From: a virus
Lineage: Duplodnaviria; Caudoviricetes
DNA: 62,007 nt
IMG/VR virus record: IMGVR_UViG_3300024979_000006
Span: 1 to 62,007 of that record
Reading direction: 5' to 3' (one strand)
The notes beneath the pieces were generated by a model. The model did not search any database. It was not told the origin of the DNA and saw only the letters and a program-made list of their open reading frames with translations. The position numbers and the translations under genes are program-made. This document shows, one piece after another, positions 3,566-36,787 of this stretch (position 1 is its first letter; each line of letters starts with the position of its first letter).

Positions 3566-3660
3566 TTTCGCACCAGATCATTAAACATATCTTTAATAAT
3601 ATCGCGTAAGGATTCGCCAAATTGGTAATAGATGTAATATTTCAGCAGATACTCATTCAT
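3553..3660 (-). CDS. Small hypothetical protein (35 aa)
   Basis: MNEYLLKYYIYYQFGESLRDIIKDMFNDLVRKCQN; ATGA-coupled to the upstream frame and overlaps the next start. Confidence 0.45.
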   Translation of the reverse strand: MNEYLLKYYIYYQFGESLRDIIKDMFNDLVRKCQN

Positions 3661-3821
3661 AAATTTATACACTCGATACCAAAATAAATAAATTCACCAC
3701 GATCTGTAGTGTACACGCTTTGTTTGCATCGTAACGGATGCTTGACGGTCGTTATCGTATCAACGCATCCAGACAACAACAAGATTAATGCGAGCGCATA
3801 GCCGCATAATTTCGTATTAAT
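3657..3821 (-). CDS. Small lipoprotein-like frame lacking a canonical start
   Basis: Reads ...KLCGYALALILLLSGC-VDTITTVKHP...ECINL*; lipobox LSGC; stop overlaps the next ATG. Confidence 0.4.
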   Translation of the reverse strand: MNTKLCGYALALILLLSGCVDTITTVKHPLRCKQSVYTTDRGEFIYFGIECINL

Positions 3822-4042
3822 GTTTCACCACCAGCATCAATGCGAATGATTTTACCGTCAGTAACTTCGATCAGCATGGTTTTAGGTATTGGATCAGGCT
3901 TTTTACATTCAACGGTTTGCATCGGTTGTATATCCGGCACATTTATCGGTGTGTACGCGCAACCGCTACAAATTATTATCGTCGTCAAGAATATCTTGTA
4001 CACTTTTTTTAACCTGATTCGGTATTTCATATTTGACATCAC
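3785..4042 (-). CDS. Lipoprotein, possibly o-spanin-like
   Basis: KKVYKIFLTTIIICSGC lipobox followed by a Pro-rich segment; overlaps the holin-like gene; exact start uncertain. Confidence 0.55.
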   Translation of the reverse strand: MMSNMKYRIRLKKVYKIFLTTIIICSGCAYTPINVPDIQPMQTVECKKPDPIPKTMLIEVTDGKIIRIDAGGETLIRNYAAMRSH

Positions 4043-4289
4043 GATTCAACGTCGAGTCGAACATATAACCAGCCGTGTATGCTGCCACAATAGCCATTCC
4101 GGTCCCTGGCATGGATGCTGCAATGCTGATGCTGGACGCTAATATAGCCAATAGCGATTGCATCGAACTTACCCAATCGCCCATCATGTATTCTTTAAAA
4201 CTGCTTGTCGTCCTGGATTGTTTATATCGCGTCAGCCAATGCCCAAATAAACCCAGGAATCCAAACAGTATAGTTAAACCGTAAATCAT
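3966..4289 (-). CDS. Holin-like membrane protein
   Basis: 107 aa with 2-3 hydrophobic segments and a charged C-terminus. Confidence 0.55.
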   Translation of the reverse strand: MIYGLTILFGFLGLFGHWLTRYKQSRTTSSFKEYMMGDWVSSMQSLLAILASSISIAASMPGTGMAIVAAYTAGYMFDSTLNRDVKYEIPNQVKKSVQDILDDDNNL

Positions 4290-4951
4290 ATAAATGTACT
4301 CCTGGTGCGATGCGGTCGTGATTGATACTTATCTGCGTGATGTTCGGCCAGTGGTCGTGTGCCGAATATCTTTTCAAACTCAATCAGATTTTCAGCAGCT
4401 TTTGTGGGATTCGTAACATCTTCATCAGGTGACTGGTACATTCGATGCAGTACCCAATAATTTAACGCTCTGTGCAGATTCTCGCGGATCTCAGGTGATG
4501 ATTTATCGCCGGTCATCTTCTTACCCAAGCGATAAACTTCCAGTTTTAGCGTATATGCTGCGTCCGGTTCAGGTGTCACCTCAACAGTGTTACCATCGTG
4601 AATTAAATACGCAGGTGTATCTGGATCATAATCACGCCATCCTGGGCGTTCATAATCAAGTTCGGTTGTGGTCGTCAGTCTAAGTTTAGTGCGAATACTT
4701 GACTCGTCAAGTACGCTTGCGTAGACAATTCCATGAATACGTGGGCTAATTGCGTAAACACTTGTGCCGGCGATTATATCAATCGTGCAGATTGAACTGG
4801 ATTTATCTTTGATTAAATCGGCGCGAATACACGCCTCATCTTGAGCTTCGTTCAAATAATCAAGATAGGCTTCTGGCGACAGTGCGTGTAACTGCGGCAT
4901 GTCATCGGTAAACCGGGTTCTATAATTAGCTTCCAGCTCCGACACGTACAT
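4286..4951 (-). CDS. Head-tail adaptor / tail tubular protein
   Basis: YLNEAQDEACIRA...PEPDAAYTLKLEVYRL...LHRALNYW pattern; position after the capsid genes. Confidence 0.75.
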   Translation of the reverse strand: MYVSELEANYRTRFTDDMPQLHALSPEAYLDYLNEAQDEACIRADLIKDKSSSICTIDIIAGTSVYAISPRIHGIVYASVLDESSIRTKLRLTTTTELDYERPGWRDYDPDTPAYLIHDGNTVEVTPEPDAAYTLKLEVYRLGKKMTGDKSSPEIRENLHRALNYWVLHRMYQSPDEDVTNPTKAAENLIEFEKIFGTRPLAEHHADKYQSRPHRTRSTFI

Positions 4952-18988: not shown

Positions 18989-19080
18989 AAGCAAAAGGTT
19001 TTACGCACGACAACGTGAATAATAAAAGCGTCGATGCGTTAAAACGAATGCAAAACAGGGGTCATTTGGTATTTTTATAA
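18985..19080 (+). pseudogene. 31-aa ORF, possible internally deleted phage adenine MTase remnant
   Basis: MKAKGFTHDNVNNKSVD + ALKRMQNRGHLVFL resemble, from memory, the N- and C-termini of phage Dam-like MTases. Confidence 0.35.
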
Positions 19081-19187
19081 TATCGCCGCCCCTCCTGTCC
19101 ATAAACCTGCGTTCTACGTTTTTTTTTACGTTCCTCAATGCGCCGGATATCCTCCGGCGTAAAATCACTCGGTTTTAGTGTTTTCAT
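19062..19187 (-). CDS. Small basic protein (41 aa)
   Basis: GGAG RBS; MKTLKPSDFTPEDIRRIEERKKKRR... Confidence 0.5.
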   Translation of the reverse strand: MKTLKPSDFTPEDIRRIEERKKKRRTQVYGQEGRRYYKNTK

Positions 19188-19231
19188 TCAGTATCTCCAG
19201 CCTACGCTGTAATGTGCGCCTGGGTCGTTAT

Positions 19232-19726
19232 TCATTTTCCATATACCTCAAATCTAATTTTATCGTTATTACATTGTTCAGTATGCCTGAGTGTAAAATC
19301 ATTACTAATGATCGGAAAAAATCTTACTACGGTTGATAATCCCGGACAATACTCATTATCAATACGAGTTAGCAAAATCATGTCAGCGTAGTACATGGCT
19401 TCACGATAAATGCTTTCCCCTCCGACGATGTAGACGTCACGATAAAAACTCTTAGCACATACCATTAACGCTTCCTCGTGACTATTGACGAATAATACAC
19501 CGTCACGATTACGACCAAATCTTTCATTACTGGCTATTACAACGTTTAATCGATTCGGCAATGGTTTACGCCCCAATGAATCAAACGTGCCACGTCCCAT
19601 GATGACCGCATGTCCGTCTGTAATTTCTTTGAATCGTTTTAAATCTTCTGGTATGTGCCACGGTATTTTACCGTCCATACCTATTAAATTATTTTTATCA
19701 CATGCTGCTATAATTGATATTCTCAT
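19232..19726 (-). CDS. folA: Dihydrofolate reductase
   Basis: IG.DGKIPWHIPEDLKRFKEIT.GHAVIMGR.TFDSLG.KPLPNRLNVV, YIVGGESIY. Confidence 0.95.
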   Translation of the reverse strand: MRISIIAACDKNNLIGMDGKIPWHIPEDLKRFKEITDGHAVIMGRGTFDSLGRKPLPNRLNVVIASNERFGRNRDGVLFVNSHEEALMVCAKSFYRDVYIVGGESIYREAMYYADMILLTRIDNEYCPGLSTVVRFFPIISNDFTLRHTEQCNNDKIRFEVYGK

Positions 19727-19727
19727 G

Positions 19728-21200
19728 TTAAACCGCCATAAATGCTTTAATAAATTGCGCTGCGACCTGTGGGACTATTGCATTACCGTACCCTTTCAAA
19801 CGCATCACACGGGCTTCTTGCGTGTTGTCTGGATCGCTGCTATGCACCACTCCATGGGGAACCCCATCAACCAGCGGCTTAATGCCGGGTTTAATTGGCC
19901 TGTACTTGTTGTCTCGGCAATAGAGCCAGTCTGGATTAATCCAAGTTTGCACCCCGGATGATTCGACGTTAAGGCTATCGCTTGGGTTTGTAGGTGAGTC
20001 GATTTCTCCATCGGACGGCCTGATGTTCTTGGTGTTGCCCATCCTGCCAATGTCGTCAACTGAGCCGTTATGTCCAGCCTGTCCGTAGATAGCTTCCCGT
20101 TCCGAATGCGACCTCCCGAGTAACCACCCTTGTGATCCGTTGCCGATGTTGTCGGCCACCCAGTACAATCGTTGTCTGATGTGCGGGGCACCCGCGCTGT
20201 GTGCTCCCAATACTGTAATCCCGAAGGTGTAGCCTTCTTCTTCCATTGCTGACTGTAAATCATCGGTCCAACTTGACTGGTTTGATGCTTCAAATTCTCG
20301 GCTAATTTGTCCGATAGCGTTTGAGATTTCTGTCTGCGCTGATTCATTATCCCAGTTGATACTTCCAGTATCTTCTGTTCCCCCCACGTATTCATCATTA
20401 CATTCAAGGCATAAATAACTACTCTCGTATTCGTTTTTAGATAACCAATCGTGTTGTCTATCCTGTCCAATGATGGTGCGTTCCAAGCCCTCGGCGTTTC
20501 CAAATCGAAAGGTATCGCTGTTACTTCGCATAATCCTTTGTTTATTATCTCTTGAACCCAATCCCCCGTTATATCCGATTCCATCCCGCGCTCTTTCGCC
20601 CGATTGATTGCCACATTCGCTAATGCTTTCCCCCTGTTTTTCAGCCGCCATGCCTTGTATTCTTCCGACGATATTTCTTTCCTGGCCTGTTTCTTTTCCC
20701 GATAAGACTTGTTGCAAGGATTGCATATTTTCGCCACATTCCCTTTCCCATAGCGAGAGTATTCTGAGATAGGCTTGTCTATTTTGCAGCGATTGCAAAT
20801 TTTCGATTTCAGTTCGTAACTTTGGCTGTCTAATTGCGGCGCCGACTTGCTCACCGAAGATAACGGGGAAATTGCACTGCTTAACAATCTCGATAAAGTG
20901 CGGCAACAAGTGTCGTTCGTCGTCTTTTCCCTTCCCGGCTCCGGCAACACTGAAAGGCTGACAGGGAAGGCTTGCTGTACAGACTGGTCTTGAATCATCC
21001 CACCCGGCGAGTCTGAGAGCGTAAGACCATCCCCCGATTCCCGCAAAGAAGTGATGTTGTCTAAATCCGGCGAGTTCTTCTGGTCTAACATCAGTAATTG
21101 ATCGTTCATCTACATACCCATTTGCTATTATTTTCATTTTTATTAATTCCCTAAGCCAAGCCGCCGCTTTGGGGTCAAATTCGTTATAATAAGCCCACAT
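19728..21200 (-). CDS. C5-cytosine DNA methyltransferase alpha chain with ~185-aa in-frame insertion
   Basis: FFAGIGG (I), PCQPFS (IV), FGEQV (VI), GAPHIRQRLY (VIII), RLKGYGNAIVPQVA (X); motif IX lies in the overlapping frame. Confidence 0.9.
   Translation of the reverse strand: MWAYYNEFDPKAAAWLRELIKMKIIANGYVDERSITDVRPEELAGFRQHHFFAGIGGWSYALRLAGWDDSRPVCTASLPCQPFSVAGAGKGKDDERHLLPHFIEIVKQCNFPVIFGEQVGAAIRQPKLRTEIENLQSLQNRQAYLRILSLWERECGENMQSLQQVLSGKETGQERNIVGRIQGMAAEKQGESISECGNQSGERARDGIGYNGGLGSRDNKQRIMRSNSDTFRFGNAEGLERTIIGQDRQHDWLSKNEYESSYLCLECNDEYVGGTEDTGSINWDNESAQTEISNAIGQISREFEASNQSSWTDDLQSAMEEEGYTFGITVLGAHSAGAPHIRQRLYWVADNIGNGSQGWLLGRSHSEREAIYGQAGHNGSVDDIGRMGNTKNIRPSDGEIDSPTNPSDSLNVESSGVQTWINPDWLYCRDNKYRPIKPGIKPLVDGVPHGVVHSSDPDNTQEARVMRLKGYGNAIVPQVAAQFIKAFMAV
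19805..21109 (-). CDS. Overlapping-frame ORF: HNH-like endonuclease fused to the MTase beta chain
   Basis: KICNRC..CNPC Zn ribbon and SLDRIDNTIGY..TNTRVV...LN nuclease motif, followed by GWPT...GQLNPALSRWLMGFPMEW (motif IX-like); true start uncertain. Confidence 0.8.
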   Translation of the reverse strand: MNDQLLMLDQKNSPDLDNITSLRESGDGLTLSDSPGGMIQDQSVQQAFPVSLSVLPEPGREKTTNDTCCRTLSRLLSSAISPLSSVSKSAPQLDSQSYELKSKICNRCKIDKPISEYSRYGKGNVAKICNPCNKSYREKKQARKEISSEEYKAWRLKNRGKALANVAINRAKERGMESDITGDWVQEIINKGLCEVTAIPFDLETPRAWNAPSLDRIDNTIGYLKTNTRVVIYALNVMMNTWGEQKILEVSTGIMNQRRQKSQTLSDKLAENLKHQTSQVGPMIYSQQWKKKATPSGLQYWEHTARVPRTSDNDCTGWPTTSATDHKGGYSGGRIRNGKLSTDRLDITAQLTTLAGWATPRTSGRPMEKSTHLQTQAIALTSNHPGCKLGLIQTGSIAETTSTGQLNPALSRWLMGFPMEWCIAAIQTTRKKPV

Positions 21201-21209
21201 AAAATCTCC

Positions 21210-23330
21210 TTAAAATATCGGTTGTAACGCTAACATAAAACCCTTCTTTTTCGCTGTGCGTTTTTCTTGAATACCTAATCGACGCAAAACTTTAGCCACA
21301 GCATTAACGTCCATTTTCGTTGTGTGACCCCATCCACATTCAGTCAATATATCCGTGCATGTATAGAGTTTGCCGTGATCGAGTATCGTATCCAAATCAA
21401 ATTTTGAACGCATGGCATCCTCGATATGATCAATTTGTGAGTGTTTTAAATGGTGATGATTTATCATTTCGTCCATTTCAGCATCCGGCCACCACTGATC
21501 ACCCGCTAAATACAAACCCCATATTTCCGCCCATAATTGTTGCATATCGACAGAATGAAACGGATTTGTACCTATTATTTGCAACGGAAAAAATCGCCGG
21601 TTCCCGGTATCATCCACCAAAAATCGTGACTCGTTGACACTAGCGAAAAACGATGTCCGGCGCCGAAACTTGCACGGTAAACGGTCGTAGGGCAAGCGGA
21701 TCTCATCGACACAGGAGGACAGAAAACCTTTTAACCGGGCAATATCTGATTTTTTAAATGTACCGTCCAGTTCGCCCAATTCGCATATCCAGGCTGATAC
21801 TGCCGCTTTACGTGAATCTTTATTCTCGGTGTCCAGCGTGATGTTATCTATCACATATTCATTGTATTCTGGCGGCACCAGTGAACGAATCCAGGTCGTT
21901 TTCATCCGACCCTGACCGGATTGAAAAATCAGCACCGCTTCAAATTTTGGGACTTTGTGTACTATCGGTGATGATTCCCCCGCATCCATGGCTGCTACGC
22001 ATTGCACCAGCCACATACGTAACAATCGATTGCGGTATTCGACGTTATTAATATCGACCAGCACGGTATTATAAAAATCGTTTAATCGGCTCACATTGTC
22101 CCATGGTTTACCAGTAATAAAATCCTTGATGGGATTTACAACCTTGTTCATTAACAACGCGGTTATGCGTTCGGCTGTTTCTATCGGCACCTCATTAATT
22201 GCCAGCAACGATTTAATTTCTTGTAATTTTCCGTTGTCGCTGATGTCATTGATTACATTTTGATTAGCCGGGAAATCGATGCAATGTTTTTTCAACAGTT
22301 CATCGTAATAATACGTAATGCCATAATGTTTCAGTATACATGTCAGATTTAATGTCGATGCTTGCGCTTTGCCTCGCTTACTTCGATCAGGAATATCTGT
22401 TTCAGACAGCCGCATATTAAACGGCATATATTCGCCTTCCACGGTGCCGAATATTTCAGCCGGGTTTACCTGTAGACCTTTCTTTGGATTAATCCAGCCG
22501 TTACGCTGTGCTTTGGCGAATACCGCGCGGTGATCAGTACGGTCCCCGGTAAATGTATTCCAACGCCACATATCGTCTGGGTTATATTTATCGGATTTTT
22601 TGGACCATGCGTCCCATAATGCAAAACCGGCATCGCCCAGGCAGGCTAGATCCTGCCCAACACTGATCCAGGTTACTCGGTCGTCTGCTGAGATATGGCA
22701 CAACGCTGATTCCAGTTCACTAAGTGTCTCGTCTGTAACCTCCGAGACAAGCATGTTTTGCTGTTTTGAGTGTTGCGACAGCTCCGGGTACATTGGTGTC
22801 AGGTTAGGGACTAGATCAACGTAATTACCTAGCGAATGCTGACATTCGTAGATTACACCACGGACCGAACCGAAATAATACGTTTGCGATAACGTAAATG
22901 ATTCATGTGCTAATATGCCACCAAACGCGCCATTTAAACGCGCCATTAACTCTCTCCGTTGAGATGGTACGGTTTCCGCTGACAATGGAGCCAGGACGCG
23001 CCAACGTGGTTTTTCGGTCGTGTGACTTGGCGATGTGTAAACCAACGCATAGATACCGGCCAGATTGAGACATTGCACCGCAGTATCAACGGATACCTCG
23101 CCGCCATCGTAATCCCCTTCAAGCCCAGATATAGACAGCACGTTTGCGTCGTGACGGTATGACCAAGCTTCGGTAATCTGATTACCGAATGTAGCTAGTT
23201 TAATTAACGGTAATTCAGATTTTTCGTTGAATACCGCAGGATTAGCACAGTGCTGGTATAGCTGCTCCCAGGTTACATCATATTTTTCTAATGTATTCGC
23301 TTTGACAGTTGGGAAGATGGTTACTTGCAT
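21210..23330 (-). CDS. Primase (AEP-like + PriCT-2) fused to VirE/VapE-type helicase
   Basis: GDYD and YTSPSH..KPRWRV; DDRVTWISVG...WDAWSKKSDKY; QSGQGRMKT Walker A, WICELGEL, FLVDDTGNRRF. Likely start ATG 23330 (track gives 23384). Confidence 0.9.
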   Translation of the reverse strand: MQVTIFPTVKANTLEKYDVTWEQLYQHCANPAVFNEKSELPLIKLATFGNQITEAWSYRHDANVLSISGLEGDYDGGEVSVDTAVQCLNLAGIYALVYTSPSHTTEKPRWRVLAPLSAETVPSQRRELMARLNGAFGGILAHESFTLSQTYYFGSVRGVIYECQHSLGNYVDLVPNLTPMYPELSQHSKQQNMLVSEVTDETLSELESALCHISADDRVTWISVGQDLACLGDAGFALWDAWSKKSDKYNPDDMWRWNTFTGDRTDHRAVFAKAQRNGWINPKKGLQVNPAEIFGTVEGEYMPFNMRLSETDIPDRSKRGKAQASTLNLTCILKHYGITYYYDELLKKHCIDFPANQNVINDISDNGKLQEIKSLLAINEVPIETAERITALLMNKVVNPIKDFITGKPWDNVSRLNDFYNTVLVDINNVEYRNRLLRMWLVQCVAAMDAGESSPIVHKVPKFEAVLIFQSGQGRMKTTWIRSLVPPEYNEYVIDNITLDTENKDSRKAAVSAWICELGELDGTFKKSDIARLKGFLSSCVDEIRLPYDRLPCKFRRRTSFFASVNESRFLVDDTGNRRFFPLQIIGTNPFHSVDMQQLWAEIWGLYLAGDQWWPDAEMDEMINHHHLKHSQIDHIEDAMRSKFDLDTILDHGKLYTCTDILTECGWGHTTKMDVNAVAKVLRRLGIQEKRTAKKKGFMLALQPIF

Positions 23331-24874
23331 ATCTGGTTCACCCGGTCGTTTATTAGAGTTATGTAATCGGGATTTAATTCGCACAGAATCGAAAATCTGT
23401 TATGTTTGGCGGCAACGCCGCCCACTGTACCGCTGCCTCCGAATGGATCAATAACGGTTCCGAATACCGGACATCCTGCAAGTATGCAAGGCTCGATTAA
23501 ATCAGGTGGGAAGGTGGCGAAATGTGCACCCTTGTAAGGTTTTGTGGTTACTGTCCATACGGATCGTTTGTTTCGTGTTTCAGCGGGTTCGGGTAAATCC
23601 GCTTCACTTAAGCCGGTAGTTGAATTTTTTAAGTTTTCTTTCGTTCTAAAGTTATTTTCTTTGGAATTGTAACCTAACTCTCTATTACGATTTACCCCAT
23701 TAGGTCTACGTTTTACCGCTTTCATATTACCGTTAGTTTTTCCAGGTACACGGCTACTACCCGTTTGATTCTCAATATTTTGAGACAATCGCGCAATACT
23801 TGCGTCTGCCAATGGTTCACCTATCGCATCCGAATCAAAATAATACTTAGGCTTCTTGCTTAACAGGAAAATATATTCGTGCGCCTTGGTGCAGCGGTCT
23901 TTAACGCTCTCTGGCATCGGGTTTGGTTTGTGCCAAATAATATCTTGTCTCAAATACCATCCGTCGGCACGTAACGCAAAGGCAAGTATCCACGGAATAC
24001 CTATCAGGTCTTTGTTTTTTACGGTTGGTATGGTACACTGTGGCTTAACATAGGAGTGATTAAACCATGAAGAGACAAGTAAACAATACCCGTAAGTGCA
24101 TCGAGTGCAGTTTAGAAGTTCCTCGCAAAGTAATGCGGTGTCCTGATTGCAATAAAAAGTTTCTGCAACTGCGCCCAACATACTCTCGTACCGAAGAGCA
24201 TAAGAGAAAAATGAGCGAAGTGACGAAAGGAAAGCCAAAACAGCATCGCTCGGCTTCTGAAAACCCTGAAGTGGCGGTAAAGATTCAGAATTGGTGGACA
24301 GAAGAACGCCGTGAAGCTGCTCGACAACGTGGATTGCGTTTTGCACTTGATCCAGAATGGCGGTTAAAGATAGCCCTTTCTGTTTCTGGGGCAAGCAATC
24401 CTCGGTGGGAAGATGGTCGATCAGGAAAAGCATATTCTCCTGGATTTGCCGACAAAGTTCGTGAGCTTGTTCGAGAACGCGACGGGAATCAGTGCACCCA
24501 ATGCGGTTCCACAAAACACCTTTGCGTACATCATAAAGACTTTGAGAAAGTGATCCATGACCTTGACAATCTTGTTCTCCTTTGTCGTAAGTGTCATACG
24601 ATTGAACACGTCGAGCACTCGAAGAGTAAGAGTCTGAAATATTCAACCACAACGTCCCATCATCCCGCAGTATTCGCTTAACCTCTGCAAATACCTTAAC
24701 CATGTTGGCGATATACAACTCTGGTGTTTCCTCAAGTCCAATTTGATCATCATGTCCATAATCACGCAGTCCATAATACGGCGGCGATGTAACACAGCAA
24801 TTAATACTTTTGTCTTGAATTTGCCGCATTGATTCTAGGCAATCTCCCGCTAATACTTTGACAAAATTATTCAT
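23321..24874 (-). CDS. N4/N6 DNA methyltransferase (beta class) with ~200-aa in-frame insertion
   Basis: VTSPPY, KDLIGIPW..AFAL.ADGWYLRQDIIWHKPNPMPESVKDR, HFATFP, DPFGGSGT. Confidence 0.92.
   Translation of the reverse strand: MNNFVKVLAGDCLESMRQIQDKSINCCVTSPPYYGLRDYGHDDQIGLEETPELYIANMVKVFAEVKRILRDDGTLWLNISDSYSSSARRVQSYDTYDKGEQDCQGHGSLSQSLYDVRKGVLWNRIGCTDSRRVLEQAHELCRQIQENMLFLIDHLPTEDCLPQKQKGLSLTAILDQVQNAIHVVEQLHGVLLSTNSESLPPLQGFQKPSDAVLAFLSSLRSFFSYALRYESMLGAVAETFYCNQDTALLCEELLNCTRCTYGYCLLVSSWFNHSYVKPQCTIPTVKNKDLIGIPWILAFALRADGWYLRQDIIWHKPNPMPESVKDRCTKAHEYIFLLSKKPKYYFDSDAIGEPLADASIARLSQNIENQTGSSRVPGKTNGNMKAVKRRPNGVNRNRELGYNSKENNFRTKENLKNSTTGLSEADLPEPAETRNKRSVWTVTTKPYKGAHFATFPPDLIEPCILAGCPVFGTVIDPFGGSGTVGGVAAKHNRFSILCELNPDYITLINDRVNQICK
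24012..24056 (+). promoter_or_regulatory. Candidate promoter and RBS for the antisense HNH gene
   Basis: TTGTTT-16 bp-TACACT with TG extension (24031-24039); AGGAG at 24052-24056, 10 nt before ATG 24067. Confidence 0.55.
24067..24681 (+). CDS. HNH endonuclease (Zn ribbon + NUMOD3-like + HNH), antisense within the MTase
   Basis: CIEC..CPDC; TEEHKRKMSE; G..NPRWEDG; RERDGNQCTQCGS...VHH.D......DNLVLLCRKCHTIEH. Confidence 0.92.
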   Translation: MKRQVNNTRKCIECSLEVPRKVMRCPDCNKKFLQLRPTYSRTEEHKRKMSEVTKGKPKQHRSASENPEVAVKIQNWWTEERREAARQRGLRFALDPEWRLKIALSVSGASNPRWEDGRSGKAYSPGFADKVRELVRERDGNQCTQCGSTKHLCVHHKDFEKVIHDLDNLVLLCRKCHTIEHVEHSKSKSLKYSTTTSHHPAVFA

Positions 24875-24875
24875 A

Positions 24876-25193
24876 TCACTTCACCGACATGAGCTTTTCA
24901 AGTGCTTTTTTCCTCAATTCGTCGCTTATTTTTTCGGCCCTGGGATCTTTGGCAACCAACCCTTGTGCTATTATTTCCAGATCACCTAACCGTAACGCTT
25001 CGCCCATTATCGCCCGACGTAAATTACTCACAGTACCAAAATACTTGGTTATCAACGTAGCACTGACGCCACTGTGATCACTAATCTGTTTGCGGGTAAT
25101 GTTTCGGTATCCGTGTTCCCTTGATACAATTAACGCATGTCCGAGTAGCTGGCGCTTACGGTCCACCGGATTCATTCTTTGCTGTTCGTTCAT
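24876..25193 (-). CDS. TetR-like HTH regulator
   Basis: RKRQLL..AL..SREHGY.NITRKQISDHSGVSATLITKYFGT. Confidence 0.75.
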   Translation of the reverse strand: MNEQQRMNPVDRKRQLLGHALIVSREHGYRNITRKQISDHSGVSATLITKYFGTVSNLRRAIMGEALRLGDLEIIAQGLVAKDPRAEKISDELRKKALEKLMSVK

Positions 25194-25664
25194 TTAAAAT
25201 TCCCCTGTTGTGAATGCTGCATAACCGCCAAGCGACGTAACAACATCGCTCCATTTTTTTTGCGCTTGAGTGTGTTTATCGTTTTCTGAATATTTCCAGC
25301 CGGCGCATTTAACTTCCAAGCTGACAAACTGGCCGATTACCATGCCCGAATGAAATGGTGTTATTGTTATCGGGCGTATACCGATTAAATCGTGTGATTT
25401 AATTTTCTGATTCATGGCGGCTGAATCATTAGCTAAACCGAACCTGACGAAATTGCCATTTTCCATCATGCCAGCACCGCGGTTATTACGCCATAAACGC
25501 CACCCACGTTTAGATGCTTCCAGCCTGATCTCCGTTTGAATACCCGACTCGCCGGTTTCGGCGCTACCGGAAATAATATCGCACTCGGCAATTAATAACC
25601 GGCGTAACTCGACCACCGCATCAGCGGAAATTCTGTATTTATGCGCCCATTGACTGATTAACAT
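25194..25664 (-). CDS. VRR-NUC-type nuclease
   Basis: ESGIQTEIR...LWRNNRGA...VRFGL...SHDLIG...FVSLEVK...AQKKW...LGG.A. Confidence 0.85.
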   Translation of the reverse strand: MLISQWAHKYRISADAVVELRRLLIAECDIISGSAETGESGIQTEIRLEASKRGWRLWRNNRGAGMMENGNFVRFGLANDSAAMNQKIKSHDLIGIRPITITPFHSGMVIGQFVSLEVKCAGWKYSENDKHTQAQKKWSDVVTSLGGYAAFTTGEF

Positions 25665-25900
25665 TTAGGCACCCGCTTGTTTTTGAACACATCTGATTTT
25701 TTAATAGTTTCCATAAAATCAGATAGTCGTTTATTTTTAAACTCGTCGGGTTCGGGTATAGTGCGTATTTTAAAAACGGTTGTTAATTCAGGCAATTTGA
25801 AAACATGATGGCCGTTTTCTACCGAGTAGTCTCCAGGTTGATTGCCCATCGCCAAGTGTATCTGGTTTGTCAGATATTTAAGCTGTTCTTTTTTGTTCAT
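25658..25900 (-). CDS. Hypothetical protein
   Basis: Likely start ATG 25900 (MNKKEQLKYL...), just after the upstream stop. Confidence 0.55.
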   Translation of the reverse strand: MNKKEQLKYLTNQIHLAMGNQPGDYSVENGHHVFKLPELTTVFKIRTIPEPDEFKNKRLSDFMETIKKSDVFKNKRVPKC

Positions 25901-25904
25901 AAAT

Positions 25905-26642
25905 TTATATCTCGCAAAATGTGCAACCTGACGTTGCGTTTCGTTCTTGTCCTGATTTTGATGTCCAAACGGACTTGCCAATTTGATTTTCTAATCGTAA
26001 AACAATTTCATATCGTTCAGCACCTACGGCATCTTGTTTGAAATCACGTTCTTTGTTTGCATCACCTGACGCCAGGCATGGGAAACAACCGACTCGATCT
26101 GAACCTTGTGAATATAGTGGATTGTATCGTCCGTTTAATTTTTCCAATACTTCTTCAGTTGTCCATTCAACAATCGGAAGTCTAAACATAACTCCACGTT
26201 TTTCTAAATATTTAGGAAACTCCGATTTCATAAAATCATGGGGTGCGATTAATTCTTCATTCAACCGCCCATAATATCGAGTTGCTCTTGCACTCGATTC
26301 TCCTGTTCTGACTCCAATCCAAACCTCAAAACCATGGCCTAGAATTAATGACAGATCAGCATAATAACGTTTAGCGGGTCTGATTTTTAAATCTCGTGTG
26401 CAAAATCGACTCCGCATGAGCGGAAATCGTTTGCGCTTCAAAACTTCTTCTTCAACCGATGACACGTTGGTGGTGACTATCGGCACGTTATAATGTTGTC
26501 GCATCCATTCGATGTGTTGGTATGTTAATGGATGTTCCCAACCTGTATCGTTAAATAAACAATGGACATCGCGATCTGTTTCTAAGGCAAGTTCCAAACA
26601 GCATTGCGAATCTTTACCGCCCGATAATGGTACTATTATCAT
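25905..26642 (-). CDS. PAPS reductase-like (adenine nucleotide alpha-hydrolase) protein
   Basis: SGGKDS PP-loop, DTGWEHP, RFCT..LK..P, GVR..ES..R, NPLY.QG.DRVGCFPC, C-terminal CxxC. Confidence 0.85.
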   Translation of the reverse strand: MIIVPLSGGKDSQCCLELALETDRDVHCLFNDTGWEHPLTYQHIEWMRQHYNVPIVTTNVSSVEEEVLKRKRFPLMRSRFCTRDLKIRPAKRYYADLSLILGHGFEVWIGVRTGESSARATRYYGRLNEELIAPHDFMKSEFPKYLEKRGVMFRLPIVEWTTEEVLEKLNGRYNPLYSQGSDRVGCFPCLASGDANKERDFKQDAVGAERYEIVLRLENQIGKSVWTSKSGQERNATSGCTFCEI

Positions 26643-29160
26643 TTATAATCCTTGCTATTAATTCATCTGCTTCTTTACGGGGTAACGCTTGCGCCGATAG
26701 CACATCTACGCCAAACGTTAGGTAAAATTGCCGCTGTGCTCGTGGTATGTCAGTCATCCCTGCCGCCCAGGTAGCTATTGCATCGCGTAGTTTATCCAGT
26801 GACGCAAGATGTTCTCTGTGCCGTTTGTCAATCGAGTTTACGATAACTTGTGTTGCGCCCCAGGGATACGTGGGTTCACCCCTAGTTTTATCGATATTGC
26901 CTTGCAGTTTGGCAATAAATTCGGGTGTCAGTAATTGCAGGTCCCCGTCTACATATTCAGGTGCTATACGACTAACAGGTGTTGCTGTATGACCGCAAAA
27001 CGGACACGTCATACCCTGAATACGCTCATAAACAGCGGTACATTCCGGGCAGGTTTTTACCTGAATTATGTCAGTGGGTGCAGAACGTCCCGATTTTTCG
27101 CGGGAGTCCAGCGTCCATTTAATTATTTTATCCGGTAAACCATGTCGCAACAGAATATTATTCACATGATCATTAATTATTCCACAGTTGTGAACGAGCA
27201 ATCCATTTGCAGTGTACCTTTGTAAAGTCCCTGCATTGATAATGTCCCATACTTCCCTTTTGGTTTGCAGGAAGGCGTATACCATCGCTGGATTATTTCC
27301 TCGTCTGTATAAATACGGATCAATCTGTTCAATGTCGAATCTGCGTAACGAATATGCGGATATTTTTCTCTGAAGTCGATAAAACGTTCTCGACACATCC
27401 CGTTTGATCTTCGAGTATTGTTTTGTTGTTTCGGTATAGTAACCCAATGAATATTCCCAGGTTCGTAATGACCGTTGTTGTTTATTCTGTCTAATTGAAT
27501 ATTTCGATTTTCTGGAATACCTAAATTTTTTGCTATCCAATGCGCGGCTTCGTTCGCAGACTCGAATTTGAATAATATCCCTCGTCCACCGTAATCCTTC
27601 CACCTGATGTTGTTTAAATTTTGACAACGATCTTGTTGCGCTTGACACCTTTGATATAGCCATTTTGGTACTGTTACAGGTTCTCGCTTGTTGCAATTTT
27701 GGCAAGCCTTTGTATTCGGACGTTTCCTCATATTGTGGTATAAGTGCATAAATTTGTGATTGCAGTTTTGACAACATACCTCTACTTTCAAACGATCCGA
27801 ACTTCCTTCTGTTTTGTTGGATATTATTATCAACGAACCGAATTGGAGTCCTACCAATTCCGGTATTAATAATCGAGAGCTGTCTAATAGCCGCTTCATA
27901 GAATGTTTTGAATCCTTCATTTGTCATAACCTCATGGTCTAATGTTGCAGTTAAACCAGAGTATGTAATTGTTGATTTTATACCCTGGCATATTGCACCT
28001 TGATGGCTTACGAATGATACGCCGTCCCAAACTTTATGGTCAAGTGTGATATTCTCAATATTTACTAAACCAACATCTGTTAATATTTTCGATCCTCTAG
28101 CAATACAGGTTTTACCATCCTTGCGACGCAACGCCCTGCCCATTTGTTGACGCGCCAATGCGAGGGAGAACGTGGGGCGTGTCATACTCACGACTTCGAT
28201 GGCCGGTAAATCGAATCCTTCACCGAACAGATCCACATTTGTGAGCTGTTTCAGATCACCTCGGCGCAACCTGGCGATACATGCCAACCGGTGCGCATCC
28301 GTGGATCGTGAACTAACCATTTCCGCAGGTATCCCCTTCTGCCTGAACGCGGCGGCTTGATCCTCGGCGCTTTCGATGTCTACGCAAAACGTAACGCCTA
28401 TCTTTCCGGCGGCGGTTTTTAAATATTGATCAACGGTATTGCCGTAAATCTTTTTACTCTTGTGCATGGCATCGCGCAAACCAGGTTGTGAATAATCACC
28501 ATCGGCGCCAAGTTTTACGGTACTTAAATCCATGTCGTCGGTTTGTGGCGCATAAATCATGTAATCCGACAGAAACCCACGACTAATTAAATCGCGCATC
28601 CCTGGCGCTTGTAGCATGACATCAAATAAACCGTCAGCATGACGCCCTAAGCCACGCCCGTCTGCCCGTTGCGGTGTAGCGGTAACGCCCAAGCCCTTGG
28701 CATTGGGAAACATATTAATAGCGCGGCCCCACTTATTTTTAACCAGAAGGTGATGGCACTCATCAAGAACCCACAAACCAACCTGTTTAAACCAACGATC
28801 AGCCGGATCCATCCGAATCAGCGTATCGACTCCAGCAACCGCGCATTGTGAATTAACATCGTAATAGGATCGTCCCGTTTCGGCCATGTGCAACTCGATA
28901 CATAAACCAATCACGTTTTTTGGTGCGATAACACGATGTCGGACACCATCGCGCGCCAACGCCAACGATATTTGTGAAACCAGTTCTTGCCGGTGAGCAA
29001 TCGCCACCGACGCACCTTGGAATTCGTGGATAATATGAGAAAAAATAACAGTTTTTCCAGATCCAGTCTCACTCACCGCACAAACGTTTTTATATCCTTC
29101 ATTCCAGGATTGATAAATTTCATCAACTAATTGTTGTTGAAAATCGAATAACTGAAACAT
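26614..29160 (-). CDS. SF2 (DEAH/RadD-like) helicase with intein
   Basis: TGSGKT, DECHH, TATP.RADG, LFGEGFDLP, QQMGRALR, C-terminal CPEC..CPFC. Confidence 0.93.
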   Translation of the reverse strand: MFQLFDFQQQLVDEIYQSWNEGYKNVCAVSETGSGKTVIFSHIIHEFQGASVAIAHRQELVSQISLALARDGVRHRVIAPKNVIGLCIELHMAETGRSYYDVNSQCAVAGVDTLIRMDPADRWFKQVGLWVLDECHHLLVKNKWGRAINMFPNAKGLGVTATPQRADGRGLGRHADGLFDVMLQAPGMRDLISRGFLSDYMIYAPQTDDMDLSTVKLGADGDYSQPGLRDAMHKSKKIYGNTVDQYLKTAAGKIGVTFCVDIESAEDQAAAFRQKGIPAEMVSSRSTDAHRLACIARLRRGDLKQLTNVDLFGEGFDLPAIEVVSMTRPTFSLALARQQMGRALRRKDGKTCIARGSKILTDVGLVNIENITLDHKVWDGVSFVSHQGAICQGIKSTITYSGLTATLDHEVMTNEGFKTFYEAAIRQLSIINTGIGRTPIRFVDNNIQQNRRKFGSFESRGMLSKLQSQIYALIPQYEETSEYKGLPKLQQARTCNSTKMAISKVSSATRSLSKFKQHQVEGLRWTRDIIQIRVCERSRALDSKKFRYSRKSKYSIRQNKQQRSLRTWEYSLGYYTETTKQYSKIKRDVSRTFYRLQRKISAYSLRRFDIEQIDPYLYRRGNNPAMVYAFLQTKREVWDIINAGTLQRYTANGLLVHNCGIINDHVNNILLRHGLPDKIIKWTLDSREKSGRSAPTDIIQVKTCPECTAVYERIQGMTCPFCGHTATPVSRIAPEYVDGDLQLLTPEFIAKLQGNIDKTRGEPTYPWGATQVIVNSIDKRHREHLASLDKLRDAIATWAAGMTDIPRAQRQFYLTFGVDVLSAQALPRKEADELIARIINDNSTIIGR
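27177..27920 (-). CDS. HNH homing endonuclease in an alternative frame inside the intein
   Basis: LVGLQFGSL.I, CCQNC..CQNC, RC.N.N...WKDYGGRGI, LDRINNNGHYEPGNIHW....QQNNTR; GAGGT RBS 8 nt before ATG 27920. Confidence 0.9.
   Translation of the reverse strand: MKDSKHSMKRLLDSSRLLIPELVGLQFGSLIIISNKTEGSSDRLKVEVCCQNCNHKFMHLYHNMRKRPNTKACQNCNKREPVTVPKWLYQRCQAQQDRCQNLNNIRWKDYGGRGILFKFESANEAAHWIAKNLGIPENRNIQLDRINNNGHYEPGNIHWVTIPKQQNNTRRSNGMCRERFIDFREKYPHIRYADSTLNRLIRIYTDEEIIQRWYTPSCKPKGKYGTLSMQGLYKGTLQMDCSFTTVE
27187..28107 (-). mobile_element. 307-aa intein in the helicase
   Basis: KT|CIARGSKILTDVGLVNIENI...LTATLDHEV...VWDIINAG...YTANGLLVHN|CGII; removal restores GKT-CGIINDHVNN. Confidence 0.93.
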
Positions 29161-29194
29161 TGTTAATTTACTCTCAAATAAATAGTGTGACGCA

Positions 29195-29260
29195 AGAATA
29201 CTGCATTAAAAAAATAATTGCAAATAATTATTGACTCTTGGGTAATTTATGAAATAAAAT
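29195..29260. promoter_or_regulatory. Back-to-back divergent sigma70 promoters
   Basis: Minus strand: TTGCAA (29218-23)-17-TATTCT (29195-200). Plus strand: TTGACT (29231-36)-18-TAAAAT (29255-60). Confidence 0.65.
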
Positions 29261-29299
29261 TTAGCCGTAGTTTAGATAAAATCAATAGGAGATAAAACA

Positions 29300-29902
29300 A
29301 TGTTACTGAAATTTGAAGTAGAAACAAATGAAGAATATGCAGTGAGAGATGCGCTAGATTTATTGCAGTATTTATGCAAAGAGTTTCCTAGATATGATGA
29401 CGAATACATCGTACTCAAACCAGAAAAACCCGCACCGGAACCTGAAGAAATTGCAATCCCAGGTCTCGATGTAGATTCTGAAGGTTTGCCATGGGACGCA
29501 CGGATTCATTCGTCGTCTAAAGCCAAGAACAAAGATGGCTCGTGGAAACGTATGCGTGGTGTTTCTGATGACGAGTTTTATAAAGTGGCGCAGGAGATAC
29601 GTGATACGCTATCAATATCTAATGATATAAACCCGATTTTTAGGGGTGAGTCTGGCGTATTGGATGAACCAAAACAATCTAACATCGACCCGTCAGAAAT
29701 ATTCAAACCGGCTGATGAACAACCAACACCAACCCCGACATATCTTGAACTCGTTTCGATTCTCGGCCAGGCAACTAAAGAAAACCGGATCGATAATACA
29801 AAAATTCAAGAAGCTGTTACTGGCGTCGGTTTGGCGGCGTTTACGCAATTGGCAGTTCGTATCGATTTAATTCCTGCGTTCATCACTAGATTAGGACTCT
29901 AG
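29300..29902 (+). CDS. Hypothetical replication-module protein
   Basis: AGGAG RBS; conserved-looking DSEGLPWDARIHSSSK..NKDGSWK..RGV. Confidence 0.8.
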   Translation: MLLKFEVETNEEYAVRDALDLLQYLCKEFPRYDDEYIVLKPEKPAPEPEEIAIPGLDVDSEGLPWDARIHSSSKAKNKDGSWKRMRGVSDDEFYKVAQEIRDTLSISNDINPIFRGESGVLDEPKQSNIDPSEIFKPADEQPTPTPTYLELVSILGQATKENRIDNTKIQEAVTGVGLAAFTQLAVRIDLIPAFITRLGL

Positions 29903-29904
29903 TC

Positions 29905-30996
29905 ATGGACACCAAAAAAGAATCGATAACCTATAGCAACCTGGCGCGTATGATGTCGTGCCTCGGTTCTGTAGATCTTATTCGAGAAAATACGATACCT
30001 GATACCGATAGAACAAATCGTGACGAGGGTATTGAAGCGCATCGTGTAGCTTTGCTGTTATATAACGAAACGCTTGAGAGTGCTAATGTTGAACAGGAAA
30101 TGATCGATGCTGCGCAAATTTATGTTGATGACATAAAACGTATCGAAAAACTTACAAACTGCCATGCGATTCTTGAAGGATTCCTAGCGGCGGCGACCTA
30201 TCATCCAGCACTTAAAGGCGTACCAGATGCGTGGTTGTTCGATAAGAAGAACAACACGATTTATATTTGGGATTTCAAATATGGGCATTCGTTTGTTAAT
30301 GAGTACCAAAACTGGCAATTAATTGGCGCGGCAATGGGCGCTTTGTCTAATTGCAATCATTCGACTAATCCAGCTATCGTACTAACCGTAGTACAACCAC
30401 GTTGTTATACAGGTAAGGGGCCTGTCAGACCATGGGTCACATCACAAAACGAACTGATTCCTTATTTTAGCAACGTGGTAAGCCGCATCAAAGCGTATTA
30501 TGAACCATTCTTAATACACGAATGTACAGTATCGCCGCTTTGTCGAAATTGCCCGGCTGGACACGTTTGTGATGCACTGTTGGACGCTTCTGCGTATGCC
30601 ATTCATCAGGCATACGATAACCTGCCCGTAGAACTGTCAGGCGATACATTGGGTCGTGAGTTGCAATCGTTAGAAGTTGCTGAATTGTTGCTCAAAGCTC
30701 GTATTGACGCATTGAAAAAAGACGCTGTTTATCGGTTAGAAAACGGCGAGCGAGTGCGTGGTTACGGTCTTGTAACTGACATGAGTCCGTTGCAATGGTC
30801 GTATGAGCAAGATACATTAATATCAATGGCCGAGTTACTTGGATTGGATGTTGTTAAGGTAGGTGTGAAAACGCCAACTCAGGTAAAAAACACAAAAGGG
30901 GTTGATCCCGCGTTAGTTGATTCATTAGCTGCGCGAGTACCAACCAAACCACAACTGAAACAGGATGGCGAAAAGTTATCGAGGATATTCAAATGA
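29905..30996 (+). CDS. Cas4-like PD-(D/E)xK exonuclease (DUF2800-like)
   Basis: C.GS, EG..AH, GVPDA, IWDFKYG, NWQL, VQPR, C.NCPA..C. Confidence 0.85.
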   Translation: MDTKKESITYSNLARMMSCLGSVDLIRENTIPDTDRTNRDEGIEAHRVALLLYNETLESANVEQEMIDAAQIYVDDIKRIEKLTNCHAILEGFLAAATYHPALKGVPDAWLFDKKNNTIYIWDFKYGHSFVNEYQNWQLIGAAMGALSNCNHSTNPAIVLTVVQPRCYTGKGPVRPWVTSQNELIPYFSNVVSRIKAYYEPFLIHECTVSPLCRNCPAGHVCDALLDASAYAIHQAYDNLPVELSGDTLGRELQSLEVAELLLKARIDALKKDAVYRLENGERVRGYGLVTDMSPLQWSYEQDTLISMAELLGLDVVKVGVKTPTQVKNTKGVDPALVDSLAARVPTKPQLKQDGEKLSRIFK

Positions 30997-35842: not shown

Positions 35843-36024
35843 TTAAAAAAATACGCTACTGGCTATTTCATAAAAAATGGGAATCCAGCAAGAAATATTG
35901 TCCCAAATGTGGCAATACTGCCCTGGGTGAAATGGCAACCTTGCATTTAAAATTCTGCACGAACCAGGACTGTAATCACTGGTTCCCCTGGCACTTGGAT
36001 AAAGGGCAAAAATCGAGATTATGA
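35839..36024 (+). CDS. Zn-ribbon protein
   Basis: CPKCG...CTNQDC. Confidence 0.65.
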   Translation: MIKKIRYWLFHKKWESSKKYCPKCGNTALGEMATLHLKFCTNQDCNHWFPWHLDKGQKSRL

Positions 36025-36787
36025 AAGATTGGCGTTATACACTAAAGCAGGGCGATTGTCTGGAGTTGATGAAGGAAATACCGGACGGTTCAGTTGATAT
36101 GATTTTGTGCGACTTGCCATACGGAATAACAGAGTGTAAATGGGATTCTGTTATTCCGTTTGAGCCATTATGGGCACATTACAAGCGGGTTATAAAACCG
36201 AATGGGGCGATAGTATTGTTCGGCTCGCAACCGTTTACAAGTGCGCTTGTGATGAGTAATTCTAAGTGGTTTAAATATTGTTGGATATGGCAGAAAGATA
36301 AAGCAACAAACCATTTAAATGCAAAGCGAATGCCAATGCGTTTAACTGAAGATATTGCGGTTTTTTATAAAAAACAGCCAACATACAATTATCAGTTATC
36401 AGATAAGCCAGTAAAAAATATTAGGCCACCAACTAGGATAAGAAAGAACACTGGTGTTTATGGATATATGGAAAAACCATCAGTAAGGCAAATACCACTA
36501 GATAAAAGTTACCCAAATGAGATTTTAAAATTTAGAGGGTGTTTCGGTGATAAAGGCAAAAGTTTCAGTGAAACACAAAAACCCGTAGCACTCCTTGAAT
36601 ACCTAATAAAGACATATACGAATGAATATGAATTAGTCTTGGATAACTGCTTTGGTTCGTGTTCAACCGGCATTGCGGCAATGAATACGAATCGAATGTT
36701 TTATGGAATCGAACTTGATGATGATTATTTTAAGATTGGATCGGAACGAATGGCACTTGGATAAAGGGCAAAAATCGAGATTATGAA
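35989..36787. repeat. 37-bp perfect direct repeat (35989-36025 and 36751-36787) bracketing the MTase gene
   Basis: TGGCACTTGGATAAAGGGCAAAAATCGAGATTATGAA occurs twice. Confidence 0.95.
36021..36764 (+). CDS. N4/N6 DNA methyltransferase (beta class)
   Basis: DMILCDLPYG, QPFTS.LVMSN, TQKPVALLEYLIKTYT, DNCFGSCSTG. Confidence 0.92.
   Translation: MKDWRYTLKQGDCLELMKEIPDGSVDMILCDLPYGITECKWDSVIPFEPLWAHYKRVIKPNGAIVLFGSQPFTSALVMSNSKWFKYCWIWQKDKATNHLNAKRMPMRLTEDIAVFYKKQPTYNYQLSDKPVKNIRPPTRIRKNTGVYGYMEKPSVRQIPLDKSYPNEILKFRGCFGDKGKSFSETQKPVALLEYLIKTYTNEYELVLDNCFGSCSTGIAAMNTNRMFYGIELDDDYFKIGSERMALG

Follow-up and report, generated by a model that had tools for sequence, protein, structure and literature searches.

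The question raised by this locus is how one stretch of phage DNA can serve both as an intein read through with its host gene and as a gene for a homing nuclease in a different frame. The locus lies in an IMG/VR virus record of 62,007 bases (IMGVR_UViG_3300024979_000006; completeness ~96%), the whole of which is referred to here as the window; the host is an uncultured freshwater phage. All numbering refers to positions in the window, and (-) denotes the minus strand. A superfamily 2 (SF2) helicase gene in this phage contains a stop-free insert of 307 codons, and inside the insert another open reading frame (ORF), coding for an HNH-like nuclease, runs in the +1 frame. The likely explanation is a mobile intein of class-1 type that occupies helicase motif VI and has a separate homing-nuclease gene nested in the +1 frame. 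An earlier, sequence-only reading of the locus had described a 307-amino-acid (aa) intein (C1, TLDH, and VHN followed by C) together with an HNH ORF in a shifted frame, and all of these are present where it placed them. The features are as follows.

26614..29160 (-): SF2 helicase gene hosting the intein; 848 codons; Pfam ResIII 1.5e-18 and Helicase_C 4e-11; phrog_16 DNA helicase 3e-76
28108..29160 (-): N-extein, aa 1-351, whose C-terminal end is helicase motif VI, QQMGRALRRKDGKT; from alignment to intein-less homologues
27187..28107 (-): intein, 307 codons, aa 352-658, stop-free in the helicase frame; from frame reading and exact insertion relative to intein-less helicases
27838..28107 (-): N-terminal splicing part of the intein, codons 1-90, including C1 and block B (TLDH); from invariant residues, profile matches and frame-0 conservation; codons 62-90, within this interval, double as the start of the nuclease
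27253..27837 (-): stop-free spacer in the intein frame, codons 91-285, read with the helicase and unconserved as protein
27187..27252 (-): splicing part at the intein C-terminus, codons 286-307, VWDIINAGTLQRYTANGLLVHN; frame 0 identity 0.71 versus 0.43 in the +1 frame
26614..27186 (-): C-extein, CGIINDHVNN..., whose first residue is the +1 Cys (27186-27184); from frame reading and intein-less alignment
27929..27933 (-): GAGGT, putative Shine-Dalgarno-like sequence 8 nucleotides (nt) before the ATG (27920-27918); relatives have GAGGT, AGGGT or AAGGT at the same position
27177..27920 (-): nuclease ORF, read in +1, 247 codons followed by TAA; from PHROG HNH families, the homologue set, and selection in relatives

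An intein inserted at helicase motif VI

The first residue of the insert is a Cys at aa 352 (CIARGSK...), the sequence TLDH lies inside it, and it ends in LLVHN followed by Cys. The insertion point falls between the end of motif VI (...DGKT) and CGIINDH, and intein-less helicases align without a break there. Relatives of this intein are encoded by 336 stretches in IMG/VR, the best 80 of which were analysed (72 of them new to the analysis). C1, T55 and H58 are invariant among 75 aligned intein N-parts, as are V286, D288, G293, T299, L304 and N307 in the intein alignment A2. The terminal residue is Asn in all of the IMG/VR relatives with a readable end (78 of the 80), followed by Cys in 72 and Ser in six; the penultimate residue is mainly His or Ser, with one Ala and one Phe.

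When a profile built from 15 relatives was compared with solved structures, inteins came out on top (Npu DnaE N-intein, E 1.7e-4), and with a profile of the 75 N-parts all 10 matches at E<=0.01 were inteins, among them the Mtu RecA mini-intein (PI-MtuI, 1.3e-3). In these matches block B of the family aligns with block B of the Npu DnaE and Mtu RecA inteins. Single-sequence searches of the Protein Data Bank (PDB) with the insert and with the nuclease returned nothing relevant. On the strength of the motifs, the exact insertion and the profile matches to solved inteins we assign the insert to inteins of the class-1 type, and the kept splicing residues in an otherwise intact helicase suggest that it is removed by protein splicing.

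Two other explanations of the insert were tried and rejected. It is not a fractured gene with a split intein, as the host is a single 848-codon ORF with no stops in the intein; nor is it a group I or group II intron carrying a nuclease ORF, as the host frame is open and intein blocks lie on both sides. No Rfam family attains its gathering score over positions 19000-30000.

Two reading frames under opposite constraint

Across the 307-codon insert the helicase frame has no stop codons and the +2 frame has 25. When the synonymous codons of the nuclease ORF were reshuffled under two schemes (20,000 reshuffles per scheme), the intein frame was stop-free in 0/20,000 under either, with 18-22 stops expected, and a chance origin of the open intein frame is excluded. 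The helicase frame is kept open by synonymous codon choice in the nuclease gene, in which no T-ending codon precedes a codon that starts with AA, AG or GA: none of the 73 codons at such positions ends in T, as compared with 62 of 174 elsewhere in the ORF. The equivalent frame of free-standing nuclease relatives contains 9-21 stops, as opposed to none in each of 10 nested ones.

A conservation map of 67 unique family members divides the insert by frame. The helicase frame is the more conserved at intein codons 1-75 and 286-307 and the +1 frame at codons 91-285, and the two are about equal at codons 76-90, a stretch shared by the last codons of the N-terminal splicing part and the N-terminus of the nuclease. 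Over the spacer the mean pairwise identity is 0.12-0.31 in frame 0 and 0.23-0.58 in the +1 frame. A conserved 'QQ(R/W)SLRTW' in the spacer is there because it is the off-frame reading of DRINNNGHYEPGN.

Estimates of the ratio of nonsynonymous to synonymous substitution rates (dN/dS; Nei-Gojobori) were made on pairs of relatives, the window copy having no close relative with which to be paired. The medians for the middle region are 0.08 (nuclease frame) and 2.07 (intein frame), and the nuclease frame has the lower value in 17 of 17 pairs. An earlier pair set gave the same picture, with values of 0.07-0.2 for the intein ends in the helicase frame (close pairs). The middle of the intein frame is thus kept open but evolves free of constraint on its protein, and purifying selection acts strongly on the +1 frame.

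The nested nuclease

The +1 ORF matches three PHROG families annotated "HNH endonuclease" (phrog_374, E 7.8e-20; phrog_3377, 4e-18; phrog_2081, 2.7e-10). Its layout is that of an N-terminal CxxC...CxxC zinc ribbon followed by a core, YGGRGI...LDRINNNGHYEPGN, and the motifs YGGRGI, LDRINNNGHYEPGNIHW and QQNN are all found in the window nuclease. Among 442 candidates there are 347 homologues, up to 61% identical and ~240 aa long, and the CxxC...CxxC zinc ribbon is invariant in the family alignment, which also shows YGGRGI and DRI(D/N)NxGHYEPGN. In a set of 64 aligned members D144, R145 and N156 are each present in 64/64, H151 in 61/64 and N165 in 58/64, and position 168 is Asn in 57 and His in 7. 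The window nuclease agrees with the family consensus at 47 of the 48 columns of >=90% conservation, the exception being position 165. Alignment of the nuclease profile with the Pfam-positive HNH protein elsewhere in the window, using hhalign, gave no signal.

Putative translation signals made from intein codons

The putative GAGGT Shine-Dalgarno (SD) sequence, which the sequence-only reading had placed 8 nt upstream of the nuclease ATG, is indeed there (27933-27929), and it is formed by the His-Glu-Val codons of intein block B. Stops in the +1 frame of the window reach to one codon before the ATG at 27920. In 77 relatives the first nuclease ATG clusters at two places: at intein codon 48.3 (21/77), mostly after AGGAGG or AAGAGG derived from Lys-Glu-Val codons, and at codon 62.3 (13/77), after GAGGT, AGGGT or AAGGT.

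The 3' end of the gene is likewise set into intein codons. In 60 of 77 loci the intein extends 8 nt past the end of the nuclease stop. This stop, a TAG in 58 of the 77, is usually built from a Leu codon and the G of Val in LVHN. The window has CTC at this usual stop position, and its ORF continues to a TAA in the C-extein, 10 nt past the last intein codon; frame reading confirms the earlier statement that the ORF runs 10 nt into the extein. Stops beyond the intein end are also seen in 7/77 relatives. Taken together, the points of the dual-frame model that can be tested in sequence all agree with it: the middle of the intein frame is unconstrained, the +1 frame is under purifying selection, and the +1 ORF has its own SD-like sequence and ATG.

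The out-of-frame nuclease as a family rule

The same arrangement was found throughout the family. In the first set of loci the nuclease was in the +1 frame, and never in frame 0, in 13 of 13. All of the best 80 of the 336 IMG/VR relatives have a stop-free host frame, and in each the sole match to the nuclease hidden Markov model is in the +1 frame (E 6e-37 to 2e-110). In a bacterial set drawn from one-genome-per-species assemblies (38 loci), the nuclease is in the +1 frame in 33, two of which are short inteins with just a nuclease remnant in that frame; the remaining five are four mini-inteins (121-139 aa) and one broken copy. The bacterial hosts include Methylobacterium, Acidobacteriota, Planctomycetes, Lentisphaeria, Megasphaera, Gardnerella, Aggregatibacter, Brevibacillus and Lachnospiraceae. 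A nuclease in frame with the intein was found in 0/118 loci (80 from IMG/VR and 38 bacterial).

At the protein level, a HMMER search with the 307-aa insert against 1.84 billion representatives gave 1,989 matches at E<=1e-3 and 143 at E<=1e-30, and among the 150 matches listed 136 align across residues 1-307. A regular expression for the off-frame footprint of the nuclease detected its signature in 63 of 150 top protein matches, a count that falls short of the truth when set against the DNA-based test (80/80).

A tblastn comparison of the kind that the sequence-only reading had proposed for the detection of the same dual coding, run with the nuclease as query, found it in finished genomes of Streptococcus and Gardnerella phages, inside the DNA polymerase I gene and again in the +1 frame. 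The cases are Streptococcus phages Javan255, Javan113 and PhiSdyV1524 (L002, L027 and L029, in the order listed) and Gardnerella phage vB_Gva_AB1 (L028). The polymerase I inteins are 309 aa long with an N-terminus like that of the window intein, and in the four records neither intein nor nuclease is annotated.

Shortened forms also occur. The nuclease ORF of PhiSdyV1524 is reduced to 197 codons, and that of locus L003 is also truncated. Six relatives on bacterial contigs (L134, L140, L142, L144, L135 and L141) are mini-inteins of 121-171 aa, four of them nuclease-free and two with a +1 remnant; these may be decay products or may represent the ancestral state. A search for longer, fused forms of the nuclease yielded two proteins among 448 candidates, one of them unrelated to inteins and the other a broken helicase. 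The latter (P0271) is a 640-aa metagenome protein in which a helicase with the same intein site passes from the intein N-part into the nuclease frame, does not return to that of the helicase, and terminates where the nuclease does, before any C-extein; it is a broken copy, either a natural frameshifted dead copy or the result of an assembly indel.

In a quick FastTree phylogeny, 28 sampled nested nucleases group, with weak support, apart from 11 free-standing relatives. At one further locus (L026), a distant relative of the nuclease (3704-4330) lies out of frame in a 431-codon open frame (3124-4419) with no intein blocks, and the nuclease family may be hidden in non-intein hosts too.

Signs of joint transfer of intein and nuclease

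The intein and its flanks have different histories. In three pairs of loci, the nucleotide identity of the intein and that of the 600-nt flanks were 99.2% versus 71/63%, 90.7% versus 70/62%, and 99.8% versus 89/93%; the presence of inteins ~99% identical in helicases that are 63-71% identical indicates recent transfer. Insertion sites are of at least three types, two of them in helicases (motifs VI and V) and one in family A polymerases (PolA motif B); the regular expression used to assign sites classed 47 of 106 loci. Among the 80 helicases nearest to that of the window (53-63% identity) the nuclease is present in 0/80, and the 77 complete ones, 526-581 aa long, all lack an intein. At the insertion site these 80 read GRALR..DGK..A/IIIDHVGNV (the slash marking the site) with no insert. 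The identity contrast, the sporadic distribution among helicases and the several insertion sites all point to intein and nuclease moving together between host alleles, and the truncated nucleases, remnants and mini-inteins would complete the picture of a homing cycle.

A model for expression and homing

Ribosomes reading the helicase frame would produce a precursor in which the two splicing halves (approximately codons 1-90 and 286-307) are linked by a stop-free, unconserved spacer of ~195 residues that is probably unstructured. Engineered mini-inteins show that splicing domains tolerate linkers in place of the nuclease domain. Protein splicing would then excise the whole insert and restore the helicase. 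Other ribosomes would initiate at the internal ATG at 27920, behind GAGGT, to produce a free 247-aa HNH-like nuclease with a zinc ribbon. During co-infection this nuclease would cut intein-less alleles at its presumed target site, and repair would copy intein and nuclease as one unit, as the transfer pattern suggests.

Points against the model and alternative explanations

A number of observations weigh against this model. Splicing, internal initiation and cleavage are each deduced from sequence. In its own frame the window insert has no intein match in Pfam at E<=1, just an unrelated DUF, and Pfam Hint_2 is detected at E<=0.01 in only 4 of 75 relatives' N-parts. On the nuclease side, Pfam HNH models match neither the window nuclease nor any of its 64 aligned relatives (E<=0.1), NCBIfam has no match for the ORF, and no solved nuclease was matched in PDB sequence and profile searches. 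Furthermore, 64 of 64 members have an Arg at what we take, on assumption, to be the position of the first His of HNH_3-type motifs. With Gln at position 165, where 58/64 relatives have Asn, the window copy may itself be weakened, and only 33 of 77 relatives have a strict SD before the first ATG. Pieces of the helicase gene occur in an RNA-library run, which is no proof of transcription, and no intein-less allele of the window phage was seen among the contigs of other samples, none of which joins across the intein. Finally, the separation of nested from free-standing nucleases in the tree has a support of 0.42, making a single clade weak. The sequence-only reading had called the nuclease a classical HNH: YGGRGI, LDRINNNGHYEPGNIHW, QQNN and the PHROG HNH matches agree with this; Pfam, NCBIfam and the solved nucleases gave no match. 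The "HNH" label thus rests on PHROGs and the motif, and a classical HNH is not secured.

Some of these points would also fit a window copy that is past its mobile phase, with an intein that still splices as the helicase needs it and a nuclease that is inactive or decaying. The Gln in place of a near-invariant Asn could be a mark of such decay, as could the loss of the usual TAG within the LVHN codons, by which the ORF has come to extend into the extein; the family has truncated nucleases and mini-inteins, and no close relative of the window intein was found, the best being 44-46% identical. Yet the ORF is of full length and keeps the consensus at all but one of the conserved columns, Gln165 recurs in 5/64 members, neither the start nor the SD-like sequence is damaged, and the stop is not the only one to lie beyond the intein end. 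We therefore regard a copy beyond its mobile phase as unlikely.

It is considerably less probable still that the nuclease is made by ribosomal frameshifting out of the intein frame, giving a fusion of N-extein, intein N-part and nuclease, rather than by internal initiation. P0271, a called protein, has exactly such a fused layout, and 44 of the 77 relatives lack a strict SD before the first ATG. Such a fusion is hard to reconcile with +1 stops that in the window reach almost to the ATG, with an upstream +1 stop 0-2 codons before the first ATG in 30/77 relatives, and with start positions that are kept at two sites with SD-like purine runs. The RNA fold around the nuclease start is also unremarkable, being indistinguishable from shuffles (z -0.73; no slippery-site search was made).

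Two other samples (runs X4 and X5) contain contig pieces that match the window over 27124-27473, 27718-28198 and 27525-28092 with 0 differences and 0 gaps, a coverage that takes in the start and stop of the nuclease and the two intein junctions; as the junctions are reproduced without indels by other samples, assembly frameshifts are excluded. The sequence-only reading had named an HNH in frame with the intein, in homologues or in reads, as one observation that would speak against it, and such an HNH was seen in 0/80 and 0/38 loci and in none of these contigs. That two compensating sequencing or assembly frameshifts conceal a nuclease which is truly an in-frame intein domain is accordingly scarcely credible, even for a window that is a metagenome assembly and a family that includes P0271 with its nuclease in frame with the intein N-part, given that P0271 ends at the nuclease stop without a C-extein and is a broken copy, not an in-frame intein, that in a genuine coding region an off-frame would not remain free of stops for 247 codons (0/20,000 reshuffles), and that the same frame relation holds in 80/80 and 33/38 independent loci, finished phage and bacterial genomes included.

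Other nested nucleases and the surrounding genome

Nucleases in shifted or opposite frames were observed in other genes as well. Helicase homologues in Vibrio lentus phages (24 listed records), where the gene is annotated merely as 'coil containing protein', have a different intein at motif II (DE/C...HN/CHH, slashes marking the junctions; Pfam PT-HINT 1e-15). In Vibrio phage 1.194.O (MG592563; L001) this intein occupies 1876-2943 and contains, in the +1 frame, an ORF of 256 aa (2150-2920) with a DUF559/Vsr-like match (7.5e-12), frame 0 being stop-free.

In the window, the gene for a 517-aa N6/N4 DNA methylase (23321-24874, (-)) is interrupted, at the boundary of Pfam profile positions 60 and 61, by an insert of ~210 aa that is free of stops. 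The antisense strand of this insert (24067-24681, (+)) encodes a 204-aa HNH endonuclease (Pfam HNH 6.8e-5) behind TAGGAG, and the methylase frame stayed open in 0/5,000 synonymous reshuffles. No intein motifs and no Rfam intron were found in the insert. A second N6 methylase (36021-36764) is uninterrupted.

An insert of ~177 aa in the C5 cytosine methylase gene (19728-21200, (-)) has a junk-like reading in frame 0, and its +1 frame codes for an EndoVII/HNH-like nuclease (phrog_3322, 3e-26). Here the +1 ORF (19805-21109, (-)) is open for 434 codons, and conservation of its C-terminal part, where WPTP-type repeats are found along with a motif IX-like NP..SRWLMGFP.EW, exceeds that of frame 0. Along the C-terminal half of the methylase this +1 frame is both open and conserved, as it also is in N15 gene 58 and in Klebsiella phages Seifer, S9a, Soft and LASTA, all of them without a nuclease insert (comparison loci L032 and L152-L155). 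Between Seifer and Soft, the middle region of the gene has a dN/dS of 6.4 in frame 0 and 0.04 in the +1 frame, such that selection passes from frame 0 to +1 and back. A conserved nested ORF and a frameshift isoform are both possibilities for this open frame.

The remaining gene content of the window includes a P22-like portal, a terminase, a 3,633-aa polyvalent protein (ART-PolyVal, LPD38) and a replication module. An N4-like phage, suggested by the 3,633-aa ORF, was considered and rejected, that ORF being the polyvalent protein and the portal P22-like. The 3' end of the helicase gene shares 29 nt (26614-26642) with a downstream PAPS-reductase-like ORF (25905-26642), and a megablast search with the helicase gene against phage records gave no match.

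Relation to known systems

The novelty of the locus was overrated in the sequence-only reading, as out-of-frame homing nucleases in inteins are already in print. The closest parallel is in actinophages, for which the available text of Gosselin, Arsenault and Gogarten (bioRxiv 10.1101/2025.01.02.630785) describes 'non-canonical' inteins whose nucleases are LAGLIDADG or VSR-like on the antisense strand, or EndoVII-like in frame 3. It lists HNH nucleases in-frame only, calls the architecture rare (63 non-canonical among 784 inteins), and proposes that a free-standing nuclease gene invaded the intein, with signs of continued transfer. The EndoVII-like inteins resemble the present family in having a same-strand nuclease ORF in another frame between the splicing blocks, with the intein frame open. 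They differ, as far as that text goes, in the nuclease (EndoVII-like as opposed to HNH-like with YGGRGI/DRINNNGHY), in their hosts (actinophage polymerase, capsid, terminase and thymidylate synthase genes as opposed to phages of many phyla), and in frequency, rare in the actinophage survey whereas it holds for 80/80 of the best 80 of 336 relatives here. An intein with an HNH-type homing nuclease described in 1997, as relayed in the same preprint, has the nuclease as a domain of the intein polypeptide, unlike the present family, in which it is never in frame (0/118).

A cyanobacterial dnaX intein with an out-of-frame LAGLIDADG nuclease is described in the accessible portion of Phillips, DeSimone and Gogarten (bioRxiv 10.64898/2026.09.14.751524), who credit Gorbalenya 1998 with first proposing the out-of-frame nuclease and themselves propose a secondary invasion. 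The two systems have in common overlapping frames, a low dN/dS for the nuclease frame against an elevated one for the intein frame, and mini-intein relatives. On the same portion, the dnaX case involves LAGLIDADG, the +2 frame, a cellular gene and one phylum, and the window family an HNH-like nuclease, the +1 frame, phage replication genes and several sites.

Two systems share part of this design. The ShiLan domain (Arsenault et al., Genes 2025, PMC11855218), in the sections of that paper at hand, is a stop-free insert in a mycobacteriophage DNA methylase that hides an out-of-frame HNH; it is similar in keeping the host frame open and in behaving as a homing element. Those sections report no splicing domain, an insert that stays in the protein, and no ribosome-binding site (RBS), in contrast to the splicing blocks that flank the window nuclease and its SD-like sequence. 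The N6/N4 methylase insert of the window resembles the ShiLan domain as described there, with the nuclease on the opposite strand. In fractured genes, as outlined in the excerpts of Dassa et al. 2009 (PMC2677866) that we consulted, a free-standing GIY-YIG or Vsr-like nuclease gene lies between the halves of a split intein; the likeness extends to a nuclease of free-standing type whose 3' end overlaps the downstream intein coding region. In those excerpts the host is divided into two genes and trans-splicing is needed, whereas in the window the host frame is continuous (0 stops) and the intein contiguous.

In the literature available to us, preprint supplements (which may list more) aside, we found neither an out-of-frame HNH-type nuclease inside an intein nor a family with such a rule in print. 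The general arrangement is thus already published; the HNH-type case and a family of such size were not found there.

Implications

We also advance a broader interpretation, which we hold tentatively, with doubt slightly outweighing belief. The two-frame layout may be no passing accident but a stable, co-adapted architecture of a large, old family, in which a mini-intein and an HNH-like gene of free-standing type share DNA, the RBS and start being drawn from codons of the block A/B region and the stop from the Leu-Val codons of block G, so that nuclease dosage would be independent of the essential host protein. Out-of-frame nucleases may then be common outside actinophages and overlooked as gene callers and Pfam miss both partners, and the same phage would have stop-free 'stealth' nuclease inserts in two non-splicing methylase genes as well.

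Inteins are normally defined as single polypeptides with an in-frame homing nuclease domain, and in recent work nucleases outside that frame are regarded as rarities. In the present family, which is hundreds strong (336 IMG/VR relatives; 1,989 cluster representatives at E<=1e-3) and includes prophages in many bacterial phyla, the nuclease is out of frame as a rule. For annotation, this means that such host genes resemble oversized proteins with junk middles that conceal a nuclease gene. The family may also offer compact Hint domains that tolerate an unstructured insert of ~200 residues, and it provides a clean example of long-term dual coding under a simple codon rule. Its full, truncated, remnant and mini forms are natural intermediates for the model in which the splicing element comes first and the nuclease invades later.

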